Part shown: in pieces, positions 2,944 to 32,306 of the stretch
How positions within the stretch are numbered: position 1 is the stretch's first letter
How the letters are laid out: every line of letters begins with the position of its first letter
Origin: an uncultured Bacilli bacterium
GTDB lineage: Bacteria > Bacillota_I > Bacilli_A > RF39 > UBA660
Length of the DNA stretch: 44,414 bases
Assembly: GCA_947630415.1 (NCBI GenBank)
Contig: CANRHM010000001.1
Span: 1 to 44,414 of the forward strand
Reading direction: 5' to 3'
Made by a program: the position numbers and the translations under genes
Notes under the pieces: model-generated
Told to the model about the DNA's origin: nothing
The model's database searches: none
What the model saw: the letters and a program-made list of their open reading frames with translations, nothing else

Positions 2944-3690
2944 TTACTTAGCTGAAGTTGCCACTAAATTAACTTTAGCTGAGAATGTTTTGTTGCTATA
3001 ATCTTCGGCATATTGTCTAACCCACAAACGTAAACGATATTTTTCATTATAACCAGGTTCTTCAATTTTTCTAGTAAATAACATTTTACCATCAAACTCA
3101 TTGCTCTTAAAATCTTCATATTGACTATATACTTTAACGCTTCCTAAATACAACGTTTCTGGCACAGCAATTTCTCTATTTCCCTTTAAATTCGTTACAT
3201 ATACTTTAACGTCCGGATCTAAAAGCGTAGAGGAAGCCATTTTTTCTAAGATAACTTTATACTCTAAAGGATTTCCTTCTCTTGGATTACCAGTAACTTG
3301 AAAATCAAAATAAGTATGATTTCCTACCATTACTTTACCTTCTTCATCGGTCATTGGAAAAGCATTGGTAATATAGATTCCGTTAGCAGGAAAATATCCT
3401 CCACTTCCACCGGAACCAGATCCTGAGCCCGATCCAGAACCCGAACCTGTTCCATCACCTTGAGCTCCACTATTATCCGAATAAGAAAATAAAATATCTC
3501 CTGTTTGAATGGTATTATTAGAAGTACTACTTCCACCATCCATTCCTAGATAATCTCGTTGAAAAGCAAATGAAAAAGTCATTAATCCAGAAATCAATAA
3601 AATAAATAAGAATATAAATAAATAAATATTTTTTCTAGAGGTCTTTGTTTCTTCTTGTTCAATATCAATATTAATGTCCTTTTTATCCAT
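2944..3690 (-). CDS. TasA-like paralogue with a SipW-cognate-type signal and an internal Gly-Ser repeat (248 aa)
   Basis: Long charged N-region and a TM ending in TFSFAFQ, then NNTIQTGDILFSY. Also GDGTGSGSGSGSGSGSGGSGG, NAFPMTDEEG, YFDFQVTG, KYRLRLWV and the C-terminal NKTFSAKVNLVA. Confidence 0.7.
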   Translation of the reverse strand: MDKKDINIDIEQEETKTSRKNIYLFIFLFILLISGLMTFSFAFQRDYLGMDGGSSTSNNTIQTGDILFSYSDNSGAQGDGTGSGSGSGSGSGSGGSGGYFPANGIYITNAFPMTDEEGKVMVGNHTYFDFQVTGNPREGNPLEYKVILEKMASSTLLDPDVKVYVTNLKGNREIAVPETLYLGSVKVYSQYEDFKSNEFDGKMLFTRKIEEPGYNEKYRLRLWVRQYAEDYSNKTFSAKVNLVATSAK

Positions 3691-3754
3691 ACCTCTTCAC
3701 CTCTATTATAAGAGTACCACATCTAAATCATTAATTCAAGTAAATATCGTAAAG

Positions 3755-3781
3755 AAAAAACACTCCGAAGAGTGCTTTTTT
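3755..3781 (-). terminator. intrinsic terminator after paralogue B
   Basis: Minus strand GCACTC-TTCG-GAGTGT hairpin followed by T6, with an A-run on the other side (bidirectional shape). Confidence 0.6.
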
Positions 3782-3788
3782 AACTAAA

Positions 3789-4634
3789 TTATTGTTGGTC
3801 TTTAGCAACGACATTTATTTTAACAGTGAATGTTTTTCCGTTAGTTCCTTTTTGGAATGTGTTACCCTCAACGCTACATTTACCTGCTGCTGGAACTTCT
3901 TCTTGCACTTGATCTGATTTTACACAAGCATCATTTGTCATTTGAGTTAAGTTGCCATTACCTTCATTTTCGGTAGTTTTATAGCCATCTTCAGCCAATC
4001 CACTTTTGAGATAATAACGATCAGAGAACCACATTTGGAATTTGTAATAATGTGTTGCTTCTGCTGCACTTACGGATTCACCAGTCGATGTGAAAGTACC
4101 TGAACCTAAAACTTTTTGAGCTTTTAGACTGCTATCAGAAATTAGTTGATCACCTTTAGCATCTTCTAAAGAATCAAAGAAAGTTGGTTTTACAAAATCA
4201 GAATAACTTTTAGCAGCGGTTTCATCTTTTAAAAGGCGTAAACGAACATACTTTGAATCCAATGTTTCATAGTTTGCTGGATCACTCGTCTCTGCAACAA
4301 TAATATCATAATCAATTGTTAATTTACCATTTAAAGTAGATGCAACAGTAAATTCAAATTCACCTTTTTCGTCGTCACTTAGATTAGTTAATGCAGTTCC
4401 TGTAGCATCAGTATCTGAAATAGGCATTGCATTTGTTAAATTGACACCGTTCCCAGTTTCATTATAACTGAATACCAAAGTACCTGTACTAATAGTATTA
4501 GTAGTTGTTCCTTGTTTTGAATAAGTAAAGAATGCGAATGACACTCCTACTACTGCAACTACTAAAATAGCAACTGCTAAAACTGATAATAAAACTTGAC
4601 TTGTTTGATGATTATTATTCCTTTCTTCATTCAT
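3789..4634 (-). CDS. TasA-like secreted protein, paralogue B (281 aa), SipW-cognate-type signal
   Basis: MNEERNNNHQTSQ, a TM ending in VSFAFFTYSKQG, then TNTISTGTLVFSY (compare TasA TWAAFNDIKSKDATFASGTLDLS, from memory). Also NAMPISDTD, EFEFTVAS, HYYKFQMWF and GKTFTVKINVVA. Strong RBS AAGGAGG. Confidence 0.75.
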   Translation of the reverse strand: MNEERNNNHQTSQVLLSVLAVAILVVAVVGVSFAFFTYSKQGTTTNTISTGTLVFSYNETGNGVNLTNAMPISDTDATGTALTNLSDDEKGEFEFTVASTLNGKLTIDYDIIVAETSDPANYETLDSKYVRLRLLKDETAAKSYSDFVKPTFFDSLEDAKGDQLISDSSLKAQKVLGSGTFTSTGESVSAAEATHYYKFQMWFSDRYYLKSGLAEDGYKTTENEGNGNLTQMTNDACVKSDQVQEEVPAAGKCSVEGNTFQKGTNGKTFTVKINVVAKDQQ

Positions 4635-4663
4635 TTTTCTCTTATCCTCCTTATCATAATTAG

Positions 4664-4693
4664 ATTATAGTAAAAGTTACCCCCCCCCGTCAA
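4664..4693 (-). promoter_or_regulatory. sigma-A promoter of paralogue B with a G9 tract in the spacer
   Basis: Minus strand TTGACG(4693-4688)-18 nt-TATAAT(4669-4664). The spacer begins with the rest of a G9 run (C9 on plus, 4680-4688). Confidence 0.6.
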
Positions 4694-4721
4694 GGGTTTT
4701 GACACAAAAATATTTTTGTTG

Positions 4722-4749
4722 ACAAAAAAAGTATCCATAATGGATACTT
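4722..4749 (-). terminator. intrinsic terminator after paralogue A
   Basis: AAGTATCCA-TTA-TGGATACTT perfect 9-bp stem (4729-4749), followed by a T7 run on the minus strand. Confidence 0.75.
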
Positions 4750-4758
4750 AATTTTTTA

Positions 4759-5580
4759 TTATGCAGCGTCTTTAGCATTTACATCTAATCGAACGACGAA
4801 AGTTTTTCCATTGGTACCTTTATCAGCTTCATTGTATGAAGCAGTTGCTTTTTCTGTTCCATTTTGTCCATATATTGGATCATCGCAAGGAATTTTTTCT
4901 TCACCTTCCATATATTTGGTATTTGTACACATATCAGGTGTCATCATTGTATCTTTAGTTGTTCCAGACTCTACATTATCCATATATTTTGTTGCAAACC
5001 ACATTAAGAAACGATATTTATGAATTTGCTCTGTTCCAGCTTCTGCTGTTCCTGTAAACTGTCCATTAGCTAAAAGTTTAGCTTCAGAATTTTCTTGAGC
5101 ATTATCCAATTTAACGAACCATTGTGGTGCTAGTTTTACCGTAGAATATGTACCTTCTTTATCTCCTCCATACAAAGCAACTTTAACGTATTTTGGATCT
5201 AGATGGTATCTTTCTTCTACATGATCAGTAGTCGATTTTTCAACAGTAATATCTTTAACACTTATTTCATAATTGATGGTCATTGTTCCAGAAATAGTAG
5301 ATGTTACACTGAAATCAAAATAACTATTTTCAGAAGCACCAACTCCGGTTGAAGGATCCGTCGTTGGAATAGCATTTTCTAATTTAATTCCAGGGGCTTC
5401 CTCCTCATATTTAAATACTAATGATCCTGTGCTAATGGTGTTGGTAGTTGATCCTTGTTTTGAATACGTAAAGAATGCAAATGACACTCCTACTACTGCT
5501 ACCACCAAAATAGCTACGGCTAAAACTGATAATAAAACCTGATTTGTTTGATGACTGTTATTGTTTTTTTCTTCGTTCAT
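4759..5580 (-). CDS. TasA-like secreted protein, paralogue A (273 aa), SipW-cognate-type signal
   Basis: The first ~58 residues are almost identical to paralogue B. It shares NAIPTTDPS, YFDFSVTS, HKYRFLMWF and GKTFVVRLDVNA. Strong RBS AAGGAGG. Confidence 0.75.
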   Translation of the reverse strand: MNEEKNNNSHQTNQVLLSVLAVAILVVAVVGVSFAFFTYSKQGSTTNTISTGSLVFKYEEEAPGIKLENAIPTTDPSTGVGASENSYFDFSVTSTISGTMTINYEISVKDITVEKSTTDHVEERYHLDPKYVKVALYGGDKEGTYSTVKLAPQWFVKLDNAQENSEAKLLANGQFTGTAEAGTEQIHKYRFLMWFATKYMDNVESGTTKDTMMTPDMCTNTKYMEGEEKIPCDDPIYGQNGTEKATASYNEADKGTNGKTFVVRLDVNAKDAA

Positions 5581-5608
5581 CTTTTCTTATCCTCCTTATC
5601 ATAATTAG

Positions 5609-5637
5609 ATTATAATAAAGTTAACCCCCCCAGTCAA
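5609..5637 (-). promoter_or_regulatory. sigma-A promoter of paralogue A with a G7 tract in the spacer
   Basis: Minus strand TTGACT(5637-5632)-17 nt-TATAAT(5614-5609). The spacer starts with G7 (C7 on plus, 5625-5631). Confidence 0.6.
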
Positions 5638-5665
5638 GTAATTTGACATAAATTTTTTTATTGAC

Positions 5666-5691
5666 AAAAAAAGAATGCTCTAAGCACTCTT
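5666..5691 (-). terminator. intrinsic terminator after the 3D-domain gene
   Basis: Minus strand AAGAGTGCT-TAG-AGCATTCTT (one G-U pair) followed by a T-run. Confidence 0.6.
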
Positions 5692-5698
5692 AACTTTT

Positions 5699-6286
5699 TT
5701 ACCAACCCCAACGAAGTATTTCGTAGGAAATATTATATTGCCTACCAATAGGAGCTGTAACTTTTTCTGATTCAAATAACAAATCCATGGTTAATCCTTT
5801 AATAGCACTTCCACGATCTAGTGCAATCGCTATAATAGGTTCGCTACTAAAGTTAAAGTTTGATATTTTTACAATAGTTCCACAAGGAATCACTGGATCG
5901 GTTGCTACAATTCGTATAGTTCCATACGTTGCATCGTTAAAATAGATATTTCCATCTCGTACGTCCTGTCTTGGAGGGCATCCTACTCTTCCACCACATC
6001 CTTCACAGTCTGGTCCATATCCTGTAATAGTTCCTGTAAAAGTAATAGGACCAATTGGGCCTTGCTCTTCGATTTCAGCAAGACTTGATACATATAAAGG
6101 TTTATTACTATCTAATATTGCATTGTATTTCGATACAATATGAATAGCTTCTAAAGACTTGGTACGATTTATATTATCTGTTTTAATTACTTCACGTTGA
6201 TTACCAGAAGCAATAATTAAAAGAATTACTGCTATAAAGGAAATGAGAAGAAAACGATTCTTCATGGCTACTAAAAATTGTCTCAT
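5699..6286 (-). CDS. 3D-domain (YabE-like) cell-wall protein with an N-terminal anchor
   Basis: N-terminal TM. C-terminal IVATDPVIPCGTIVKISN...AIALDRGSAIKG..MDLLFES matches the 3D-domain pattern. Position after metG-tatD mirrors B. subtilis metS-yabD-yabE. Confidence 0.75.
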   Translation of the reverse strand: MRQFLVAMKNRFLLISFIAVILLIIASGNQREVIKTDNINRTKSLEAIHIVSKYNAILDSNKPLYVSSLAEIEEQGPIGPITFTGTITGYGPDCEGCGGRVGCPPRQDVRDGNIYFNDATYGTIRIVATDPVIPCGTIVKISNFNFSSEPIIAIALDRGSAIKGLTMDLLFESEKVTAPIGRQYNISYEILRWGW

Positions 6287-30052: not shown

Positions 30053-31420
30053 TCACTTGATATCTTTCATTAGTTTTTCAATGGTTCCTGCTAATTCTTT
30101 ATTCGTTTTCATTTCTCGTTCGATTTTTTCACAGGAATGCATGACAGTAGAATGATCTTTTCCACCAAATTCCATTCCTATCTTAGGAAAAGATTCATTG
30201 GTAAGTTTTCTACACAGGTACATGGCCACTTGTCTTGGAAAAGCAAGATTTGCACTTCTCTTTTTACTTTTCATATCTTCATTTGATATTTGGTAGAACT
30301 CGGCCACTCGCTTTTGAATTTTTTGAATATCATTTTTCTCAGTTACTCCTCTGTTGATAAAATCTTTTAAGGCTTCTATTGCTAAGTCTAAGTTAATTTC
30401 TTGTCCACCCATAATGGTGGAATATGCAAGAAGTCTATTAACTGATCCTTCTAATTGCCTGACATCGTTTCCCATATTAGAAGCAATATATTCAATGACA
30501 TCTTCGGGAATTTCTCTTTCAATGGCTCCTCCTAAAATTTTCTTTTTTAAAATGGATACGCGTAAATCGAAATCTGGTGGAAAAATATCTACCGTCAATC
30601 CCCAACAGAACCTTGTTCGTAACCTATCTTCTAAGACTTTTAAATCATCTGGTGAACGGTCCGATGAAATAATAATTTGTTTATTATCACTATATAAGGT
30701 ATTAAACGTGTGGAAAAATTCTTGTTGAGTTTTGGTAGCCCCTCCTAAAAACTGAATATCATCAATGATGAGTACATCGACATTTCGATATTTATTTTTA
30801 AAGTATTCTATATAATTAAAGTTATTGCCATTATCATCTTTAGTATTGATACCTAAGAAATCTTCTATAAATTGTTCACTGGTAACATATAATACGCGTC
30901 GATTAGAATTTTGTACGATGAAATTTCCAATCGCATGCATCAAATGGGTTTTTCCTAATCCACTATTACCATAGATAAATAAGGGATTATATATTTTTCC
31001 AGGATTTTCTGCTACCGCTAAAGCCGCGGCATGAGCAAATTTATTACTATTTCCAACAACAAAGTTTTCAAAAGTATAATTTGGATTTAAGTTTGATTGA
31101 ACATTATTATTGGAAGGAATAATAACTTCTTTCTCTTCTTCTTTTCGTCGCTCAATTTCTTTTTTCTCATCAATTTCTTCTTGAAGTAAGAATTCTATTT
31201 CAAAATTAGATCCTGCTAGATTATTAAATGTTTGAACAATTAAATCTTTATAATTATCTTCTAGATGTCGTTTATGTATTTCCATAGGAACAATGATCGT
31301 TGCTTTTCCATTCTCGAGTGCGTAAAGATGCGTATCTTGAAACCACGTTTCGTAAGATAAGGAGGTAATTTCTTTTTTTATTTCTTCTAAGAAATTATCC
31401 CATAAGATGGTAACATTCAT
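30053..31420 (-). CDS. dnaA: chromosomal replication initiator protein DnaA
   Basis: Start taken at MNVTILWDNFL (ATG 31420, AAGGA upstream). GNSGLGKTHL Walker A, IIDDIQFL, the sensor motifs and the C-terminal DnaA-box-binding helix (DHSTVMHS). Confidence 0.95.
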   Translation of the reverse strand: MNVTILWDNFLEEIKKEITSLSYETWFQDTHLYALENGKATIIVPMEIHKRHLEDNYKDLIVQTFNNLAGSNFEIEFLLQEEIDEKKEIERRKEEEKEVIIPSNNNVQSNLNPNYTFENFVVGNSNKFAHAAALAVAENPGKIYNPLFIYGNSGLGKTHLMHAIGNFIVQNSNRRVLYVTSEQFIEDFLGINTKDDNGNNFNYIEYFKNKYRNVDVLIIDDIQFLGGATKTQQEFFHTFNTLYSDNKQIIISSDRSPDDLKVLEDRLRTRFCWGLTVDIFPPDFDLRVSILKKKILGGAIEREIPEDVIEYIASNMGNDVRQLEGSVNRLLAYSTIMGGQEINLDLAIEALKDFINRGVTEKNDIQKIQKRVAEFYQISNEDMKSKKRSANLAFPRQVAMYLCRKLTNESFPKIGMEFGGKDHSTVMHSCEKIEREMKTNKELAGTIEKLMKDIK

Positions 31421-31486
31421 AAATATCACATCCTTACCAGCGTATTTTTTAAAAGTAAATTCATTGTTTTTTATTGTAACTGAAAT

Positions 31487-31675
31487 TGTGGAAAAAGAAA
31501 AGGAAAAAAATTAAAAAATTAAAATTCACAGGATATTCACCTGTTTTGCACAAAGTTATCCACTAATCTTATCTTTATTATATAAGGAAATGGTTGATTT
31601 TTCCACAGAATGTGTAAATTTGGTAATCAACATGGTGTATTTTGTTTTCCACAAGGCTGTGCAAAATGTGGATAA
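31487..31675. other. oriC left part: DnaA-box cluster upstream of dnaA
   Basis: TGTGGATAA perfect (31667-75). One-mismatch boxes: TGTGGAAAA (31487-95), TTATCCACT (31556-64), TTTTCCACA (31599-607) and TTTTCCACA (31645-53). Two-mismatch boxes: 31544-52 and 31658-66. Confidence 0.8.
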
Positions 31676-31694
31676 ATAAAAATCTAAAAAGCGG

Positions 31695-31724
31695 TTGACA
31701 AAATTCTTCTTTTCCTATTATAAT
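31695..31724 (+). promoter_or_regulatory. sigma-A promoter of rpmH-rnpA
   Basis: TTGACA(31695-700)-18 nt-TATAAT(31719-24). Confidence 0.55.
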
Positions 31725-31755
31725 AATGGAGACTTTATGTTTGGAGGTGGAAATG

Positions 31756-31878
31756 ATGAAAAGAACGTATCAACCAAATAATCGTAAAAAAGCAAAAAAA
31801 CATGGTTTCTTTGCAAGAGTAAAAACAAATGTAATTAAGAAACGTAGAGCGAAAGGACGTAAGCAATTAGCAAAATAA
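31756..31878 (+). CDS. rpmH: 50S ribosomal protein L34 (40 aa; below the ORF-track cutoff)
   Basis: Hand translation gives [40 protein letters not shown], with GGAGG upstream. An extra in-frame ATG lies at 31753. Confidence 0.9.
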
Positions 31879-31880
31879 TA

Positions 31881-31905
31881 CCACTGAGACTTTCAGTGGT
31901 TTTTT
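31881..31905 (+). terminator. intrinsic terminator/attenuator after rpmH
   Basis: CCACTGA-GACTT-TCAGTGG followed by T6. Confidence 0.8.
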
Positions 31906-31955
31906 CCTATTATAAATAGTCTTGGATCAAAAATAAAAATAAAGGGAGTGATCCA

Positions 31956-32306
31956 GTGAAAAAAGCAAATATTGTAAAAGAAAATGCTCTTTTTAATGAT
32001 ATTATAAGCACAGGGAAATGTGTAAAAAATAAAAACCTTGTCATCTATTATAATATAAATAAGGAAAAGAGATATCGCTTTGGCATATCCGTTGGTAAAA
32101 AAATAGGAAATGCCGTTACTAGGAATTATCAAAAGCGCAGAATAAGGAATATTGTGGATAATCATAAAAATCTCTATTCAAATGACTTAGATTATATTAT
32201 AATAATAAGAAGAAATGTTTTAAATGAGGACTTCATACACTTAGATGAAAGCTTCGTTCAACTGATGAATAATATTAATAAGATGAGAGAAAGGAGCACC
32301 GAATGA
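31956..32306 (+). CDS. rnpA: ribonuclease P protein component
   Basis: GTG start after AAGGGAG. RFGISVGKKIGNAVTRNYQKRRIR (RNR motif). Confidence 0.9.
   Translation: MKKANIVKENALFNDIISTGKCVKNKNLVIYYNINKEKRYRFGISVGKKIGNAVTRNYQKRRIRNIVDNHKNLYSNDLDYIIIIRRNVLNEDFIHLDESFVQLMNNINKMRERSTE

Follow-up and report, generated by a model that had tools for sequence, protein, structure and literature searches.

In an uncultured Bacilli bacterium, the -35 and -10 boxes preceding a gene for a secreted, hypervariable protein are separated by a run of nine guanines. It is probable that this run is a slipped-strand contingency tract, which would mediate promoter-spacer phase or "volume" variation of the type known for porA, opc and vlp. 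The window (the whole stretch of 44,414 nucleotides that was analysed) carries a second run of this kind in front of a paralogous gene, and runs of slightly different lengths occupy the same place in the homologous promoters of a closely related species. Variation of a homopolymer in a promoter spacer is a known mechanism; the lineage and the uncharacterised SipW-associated protein family in which it would operate are new. The first-pass annotation had proposed the same reading for the nine-guanine run, and the comparative evidence supports it.

Two promoters with a G run

On the minus strand, the promoter of the gene hereafter called paralogue B reads TTGACG (4693-4688), GGGGGGGG-TAACTTTTAC, TATAAT (4669-4664), and is followed by an AAGGAGG ribosome binding site (4652-4646) and by the ATG start codon (4634-4632). 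On re-reading, the positions previously assigned to the two boxes, to the run, to the ribosome binding site and to the ATG at 4634 are each correct. The G9 homopolymer, which is the proposed slippage site, extends from 4688 to 4680 (C9 at 4680-4688 on the plus strand). The -35 hexamer ends (position 6) with the first G of the run, which leaves eight G for the spacer; re-measured, this spacer has the 18 nt reported before. Uninterrupted homopolymers of about 7-8 or more G or C are those prone to slippage, and the window has two of this length, the G9 at 4688-4680 and a G7 at 5631-5625. At a G+C content of 31%, the window would be expected to contain about 0.005 runs of nine or more G or C. Actually, C9 (4680-4688) and C7 (5625-5631) are the only two G/C runs of six or more in the 44,414 bases. 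Hence, the G9 run is not a chance feature, and its earlier description as compositionally very unexpected is borne out.

The G7 run, which had been overlooked in the first-pass annotation, occupies the equivalent position in the promoter of the second gene, paralogue A. This promoter, at 5637-5609 on the minus strand, reads TTGACT (5637-5632), GGGGGGG-TTAACTTTAT, TATAAT (5614-5609), followed by AAGGAGG and by the ATG at 5580, with a spacer of 17 nt. As judged from the sequence, this twin is the strongest internal support for the proposed slippage. In a sigma-70-type consensus scan of the first 8 kb, promoters A and B were the two best matches, with 11/12 positions each, and their hexamers are unchanged across all homologous promoters.

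Both promoters are bounded by terminator-like structures. A hairpin with a T-run at 5691-5671 ends the upstream gene, which encodes a 3D-domain (yabE-like) protein, and another one at 4749-4729 ends paralogue A and isolates promoter B from read-through. Downstream of paralogue B, a GC-rich hairpin at 3774-3761, reported by the scan on the plus strand, reads GCACTCTTCGGAGTG on the minus strand and is followed by a T-run. Because a terminator hairpin precedes each promoter and a further hairpin follows B, paralogues A and B form separate monocistronic units. Each promoter also contains an inverted repeat overlapping the -35 box, GTCAA-N5-TTGAC at 4703-4689 in promoter B and GTCAA-ATTAC-TTGAC at 5647-5633 in promoter A. 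An additional TTGTCAA lies about 20 nt upstream in both promoters (see also 4719-4723). The inverted repeat and the upstream TTGTCAA are kept in all G-tract promoters of both species considered below, and the repeat may be a candidate binding site for a regulator.

Other structures were considered around the run. A terminator-like CCC...GGG hairpin flagged by the scan at 4697-4679 was dismissed, as its CCC arm is missing from promoter A and from most homologues. A G-quadruplex was dismissed by inspection, since one G run cannot make an intramolecular quadruplex. A search of positions 3600-5800 against Rfam gave nothing above chance.

The gene cluster and its products

Paralogue B (3789-4634, minus strand) encodes 281 residues and paralogue A (4759-5580, minus strand) 273 residues. 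The two proteins are 42% identical overall, and their first 57 residues are nearly identical. This common part comprises a charged N-terminus and a hydrophobic segment ending ...GVSFAFFTYSKQG, followed by TNTISTGTLVF. In paralogue B, the signal or transmembrane segment ends SFA/FF (the slash marking the signal end) and a hypervariable, beta-rich domain comes after it. Among the products, the N-terminal signal segment does not vary, and column identity averages 42% over the remainder.

Three further genes of the cluster lie on the same strand. The open reading frame 1908-2843 encodes a SipW-type (archaeal-type) signal peptidase I, as indicated by its match to TIGR02228 (1.8e-27, 96 bits for a cut-off of 51.85); its score with the Bacillus SipW equivalog model, 76.9 bits, is under the cut-off of 190 of that model. 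A third secreted protein of 248 residues (2944-3690) has a Gly/Ser-rich linker and a signal ending FSFA/F, and a fourth putative SipW substrate of 215 residues (1331-1978) displays FSYA/F. The Gly/Ser linker of the third protein, GSGSGSGSGSGSGG, derives from an imperfect 12-nt tandem repeat at 3413-3444, the length of which could vary in frame. In paralogues A and B, no in-frame repeat size variation was seen.

The paralogue products matched no Pfam or NCBIfam family, and a PDB profile search found no relative. An AlphaFold model (pLDDT 67), which shows a beta-sandwich, gave no Foldseek match at E <= 0.001. With neither a family, a PDB-profile nor a significant fold match, the products were not assigned to the TasA/camelysin family (Peptidase_M73). 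The sole resemblance lies behind the signal peptide, in the short motif AF...T-I-x-T-G-T-L, which we take to be shared with TasA and camelysin. Type IV pilin identity was not supported either, as the N-terminus ...VVGVSFAFFTYSKQG is devoid of the G-F-T-L-I-E class III motif. The products are thus probably an uncharacterised family of secreted proteins cleaved by SipW, and they would be located at the cell surface. By their signal peptide, the adjacent sipW, their invariant N-terminus and their variable domain, these predicted proteins fit the usual targets of phase variation.

Upstream of the cluster are the 3D-domain (yabE-like) gene, tatD and metG, and in the syntenic cluster of the sister species (see below) ksgA and yabG lie downstream. 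This arrangement is presumably that of the Bacillus chromosome, with the cluster sitting between yabE and ksgA. The replication origin region is found at 30053-32303, with dnaA, dnaN, recF, gyrB and gyrA on the minus strand, yidC, mnmE, mnmG and parB on the plus strand, and a change of sign of the GC skew at about 31-32 kb. The origin-region genes and the skew turn place the locus on the chromosome, about 26 kb from the origin. The sporulation-type genes spoVT and yabG are present in the window or in its syntenic sister locus.

Tract length in related genomes

A protein search retrieved 565 relatives, all from gut metagenomes or metagenome-assembled genomes (MAGs). A scan of species-representative genomes that made no assumption on the tract yielded 79 loci, from MAGs labelled 'uncultured Bacilli/Tenericutes' (many from rabbit gut), from Candidatus Onthousia and from Clostridium sp. 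CAG:451. The closest genome, GCA_947623935.1 (Lapin-030__bin56), is syntenic with the window and 91.5% identical to it in the housekeeping flank, and therefore represents a sister species. All five of its paralogues (5/5) have the same promoter with an uninterrupted run of G8-G9. Two of them, the orthologue of paralogue A (L002a) and its neighbour L002b, combine a TTGACT box with G8 and an 18-nt spacer. A third one (L003) has TTGACT, G9 and 19 nt. The last two have TTGACG and G9, with spacers of 17 nt (L008) and 18 nt (L011). Comparison of the tract in related strains had been recommended in the first-pass annotation; over the window and the sister species, the run is uninterrupted in 7/7 homologous promoters, with lengths of 7-9 and spacers of 17-19 nt, an outcome in line with what variation by slippage would predict. 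In the case of promoter A and its sister-species orthologue, 43/44 positions match from the tract to the ATG, yet the run is G7 in the window and G8 in the sister species.

A closer comparison is offered by a 1249-nt contig from another metagenome assembly, ERZ27249389 (L001). Over 1250 aligned columns, this contig departs from the window twice, by a synonymous SNP and by a tract B that is shorter by one G. With TTGACG as the -35 box in both, the run of promoter B is therefore G9 in the window and G8, with a 17-nt spacer, in the contig, the coverage of which is 1.6x, so that the homopolymer may have been miscalled. Tract A does not differ (G7 in either sequence). The G8/G9 difference, as read from this one 1.6x contig, matches what slippage predicts. 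In a second near-clonal pair of loci, L003 and L004, both with G9, identity is 100% over 7.4 kb, which makes the pair uninformative; the two are perhaps not independent.

Low coverage and the error-prone nature of homopolymers raise the question of whether the run, or its length, could be an artefact of sequencing or assembly, for instance of the poly-G calls of two-colour chemistry. This is highly improbable. The run is internal to contigs, with conserved sequence on both sides, and at least eight promoters, from three MAGs and separate assemblies, have it in the same place, whereas poly-G artefacts fall at the ends of reads and would not be assembled in such a reproducible way. At most, an artefact could account for the one G8/G9 difference, but not for the existence of the tract.

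All the tract-bearing promoters are clearly homologous, and promoter and 5' coding block of L002a and L002b are 100% identical, which indicates a recent conversion or duplication. It may thus be imagined that the run is a neutral passenger with no selected role, which had a single origin in an ancestral promoter and then spread with the gene through duplication or gene conversion. The comparison of 21 paralogue pairs makes this quite unlikely. The non-coding stretch from the tract to the ATG is 88% identical, whereas in the neighbouring N-terminal block the codons are identical at 74% of the conserved residues. Hence, the promoter and the unbroken run within it are under a stronger constraint than synonymous positions, as is not expected of a neutral relic; seven copies of the run are unbroken although about 26% of the codons for conserved residues next to them differ.

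The run could also be a static promoter element. It would then contribute spacer stiffness or groove geometry, or would be part of a regulator site together with GTCAA-N5-TTGAC, and slowly evolving, fixed lengths would set a constitutive level for each paralogue, with no high-frequency switching. The run is indeed kept in place in every close paralogue, beside the conserved inverted repeat, its lengths are confined to 7-9, and tract A is G7 in the window and in L001 alike. However, near-identical promoters differ only in run length, giving spacers of 17, 18 and 19 nt, which would be odd for a tuned element, and the near-clonal pair formed by the window and the 1.6x contig L001 differs in the tract. 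To our knowledge, intrinsic instability of G runs of 8-9 has been seen in every bacterium studied, which also speaks against a static element. Finally, a homologous promoter of Lapin-003-2__bin48 (L007/L088), identical in two assemblies, reads TTGACG-ACGAGGGTTCACTTTATC-TATAAT; its run is interrupted, yet its boxes are intact and its spacer is 18 nt. Overall, a static element appears unlikely, and slippage within the spacer is the preferred reading of the tract lengths.

More distant members of the family have TTGCAT ... TAAGAT promoters without a G run. Judging from these sequences and from the interrupted promoter, the G run appears dispensable for a promoter as such and specific to one clade. 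T7 and T8 runs in the promoters of distant members (L009, L015) were discounted, T runs being common in this composition. A scan of JGI metagenomes with a tract-agnostic promoter pattern gave a single match, without a G run; this match was judged to be due to chance, as no family gene follows it in the list of open reading frames, which was what was checked.

Between the window (3789-5580) and the sister species (4005-5852 of L002), the DNA of these domains is not alignable, whereas the flanks are 86-91.5% identical. This points to a strong diversification, or to a replacement, of what would be the exposed domain.

Poly-G runs elsewhere in the lineage

Across the 312 kb of loci that were retrieved, 18/18 G/C runs of seven or more are at regulatory positions, a count which includes overlapping and duplicate loci. 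This set is made of the family promoters, of a gene for a 687-residue protein in L003, of a family gene in L014 and of signal-peptide codons in the MAG Lapin-012__bin84. In the sister species, the G9 at 2663-2671 of L003 lies in a promoter of the form TTGACA-T-G9-TAGTTT-TATAAT, with a 16-nt spacer. The corresponding gene, just upstream of a family paralogue, encodes the 687-residue secreted protein, which has an N-terminal hydrophobic segment and for which no Pfam family was found. In L014 (Lapin-019__bin48), a G9 run is located in the 18-nt promoter spacer of a family gene. The occurrence of G8-9 at regulatory positions of non-homologous genes and sites of the lineage, as well as the 18/18 count, further argues against a neutral passenger copied along with one promoter.

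In Lapin-012__bin84, G8 or G9 runs are found within the signal-peptide codons of large secreted-protein genes adjoining family genes. Two of these genes are closed in the assembly, where G9 leads to a 28-residue stub: in L026 (2294-2302), G8 would open a frame of at least 439 residues, and in L047 (2312-2320), one of at least 451. The other two are open. In L032 (2310-2317), the G8 of the assembly leaves the frame open to the contig end and G7 or G9 would close it; in L063 (2343-2351), G9 gives an open frame of at least 433 residues, which G8 or G10 would close. That paralogues of one genome are in different frame states is a classical hallmark of contingency loci, here of translational phase variation. 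Such intragenic runs of a related MAG, in both ON and OFF frames, are not expected of a static promoter element.

The same MAG carries at least 12 copies of the family, many of which come after a conserved gene of about 400 codons (MIPV.W...). In several copies (L012, L020, L026, L047 and others, at about position 1501 of the locus), either no ATG, GTG or TTG start is present or an in-frame stop occurs just before the conserved N-terminal block; these copies may be silent cassettes or pseudogenes. Directly downstream of a family gene of this MAG, L076 (1804-2949) encodes a protein whose N-terminus, KGFTLIEV..., is that of a genuine type IV pilin, the one place where such a motif was seen. In this respect, a passage of PMC11580942 links the BsaA-type matrix proteins of C. 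perfringens to type IV pilus-associated secretion.

A model for promoter-spacer variation

Sigma-70-type promoters have an optimal spacer of 17 nt; 18 nt is weaker and 19 nt is poor. In the proposed mechanism, the hexamers described above would be the promoter actually used, read by a housekeeping sigma factor (sigma-A/sigma-70) and driving a monocistronic gene, the secreted and hypervariable product of which would be a fibre or matrix subunit, with SipW as its probable processing enzyme. Gain or loss of a G by replication slippage would shift the distance between the -35 and -10 boxes and, with it, promoter strength. For promoter B, G8 would correspond to the optimal 17 nt, G9, as in the window, to 18 nt, and G10 to 19 nt, while for promoter A G7 already corresponds to 17 nt. 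Expression would depend on tract length, and switching would occur at high frequency within a clone. Since neither tract nor promoter is shared between the paralogues, and terminators flank each of them, subunit levels would vary independently, stochastically and heritably in the population. The window would thus represent a state 'A full, B reduced' and L001 a state 'A full, B full'. For the sister species, the state would be 'one full, three reduced, one low'. The likely benefit would be evasion of antibodies or phages, or altered adhesion or matrix properties.

Such an output would be a graded 'volume control' rather than a strict ON/OFF choice. In the first-pass annotation, a change of one G was expected to "retune or switch" the promoter. 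Retuning is the better description; switching fits less well, because an 18-nt spacer is likelier to give a reduced level than an OFF state. As 17- and 18-nt spacers are both usually functional, the effect may be modest. It may also be that a regulator protein dominates control, given the conserved inverted repeat over the -35 box.

Comparison with known systems

The organisation of the promoters resembles that of porA (poly-G) and opc (poly-C) of Neisseria meningitidis, where a G/C homopolymer lies between the -35 and -10 boxes of a surface-protein gene and one-base slippage alters the spacer. In porA, expression falls step by step from 11G to 10G and to 9G (PMC3639595). Several differences should be mentioned. 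The host is here a gut bacterium of the Bacilli, low in G+C and apparently able to form spores, rather than a Gram-negative pathogen, and the run is of 7-9 instead of 9-14 nucleotides. The product, known here from sequence alone, is a SipW-associated secreted protein and not an outer-membrane porin, and several paralogues are equipped with the same device.

With respect to architecture, the closest analogue is the vlp system of Mycoplasma hyorhinis, a multigene family where each member has its own unit and its own homopolymer. In the vlp genes, a conserved 5' block containing the promoter and the signal peptide precedes a divergent mature part. However, poly-G in a genome of 31% G+C is far less expected than the poly-A of vlp, the present products are not lipoproteins, and the organism has a cell-wall-associated cluster of signal peptidase and fibre genes as well as sporulation genes. 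According to a passage of PMC10502178, citing Citti and Wise 1995, each vlp gene has its own transcript and its own homopolymeric promoter tract, which leads to combinatorial expression. Among Firmicutes, a precedent for an intergenic homopolymer modulating a surface-protein gene is found in S. pyogenes (PMC7098570). In that case (Spy1336/R28-Spy1337 of M28 Streptococcus pyogenes), a T tract between divergent genes acts via a regulator gene, unlike a G run between the -35 and -10 boxes of each paralogue.

On the side of the products, the cluster recalls the matrix-fibre operons tapA-sipW-tasA of Bacillus subtilis and sipW-bsaA of Clostridium perfringens (PMC7395162). In all of them, a SipW-type peptidase gene stands beside several secreted substrates with a characteristic signal-peptide end, which makes the present proteins candidate subunits of an extracellular fibre or matrix. 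Here, however, no sequence similarity to TasA/camelysin was detected in the substrates, nor a significant similarity of fold. Control of the known operons depends on regulators (SinR, AbrB, temperature) and not on repeat tracts, whereas the candidates for major subunits are here duplicated, hypervariable and separately promoted.

The poly-G contingency loci of Campylobacter jejuni and Helicobacter provide a last comparison, as G8-G9 runs are also there a recurring, lineage-wide device in an AT-rich genome. The intragenic ON/OFF runs of Lapin-012__bin84 appear to be exactly of that type. The tracts of Campylobacter and Helicobacter are mostly intragenic, whereas those of the window would act, if at all, on transcription.

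Concluding remarks

Most documented cases of repeat-driven phase variation come from a small number of pathogens, namely Neisseria, Haemophilus, Campylobacter, Helicobacter and the mycoplasmas. In gut commensals, the mechanism known so far is that of invertible promoters. It is tempting to imagine, although with a little less than even confidence, that the Bacilli known from rabbit-gut MAGs, which have sporulation-type genes, possess a lineage-wide, mycoplasma-like poly-G 'phasome'. Each family member would have its own G-tract promoter, the G runs of a sister clade being placed in signal-peptide codons, and stochastic combinations and doses of antigenically distinct, SipW-processed subunits would result. 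The conserved block made of promoter and signal peptide could, in addition, act as a homology arm for the swapping of variable domains. If this is true, combinatorial surface variation based on simple repeats would occur in a commensal group of Firmicutes where it has not been described before.

If the proposed mechanism holds, poly-G tracts would enable an uncultured gut lineage of the Bacilli to vary the secreted, fibre-like proteins of an uncharacterised family, and these proteins would be flagged as targets of host-immune or phage pressure. In a genome of 31% G+C, G runs of seven or more would then be a signature for finding contingency loci in MAGs, and consensus MAG sequences would hide a functionally relevant heterogeneity of tract length.
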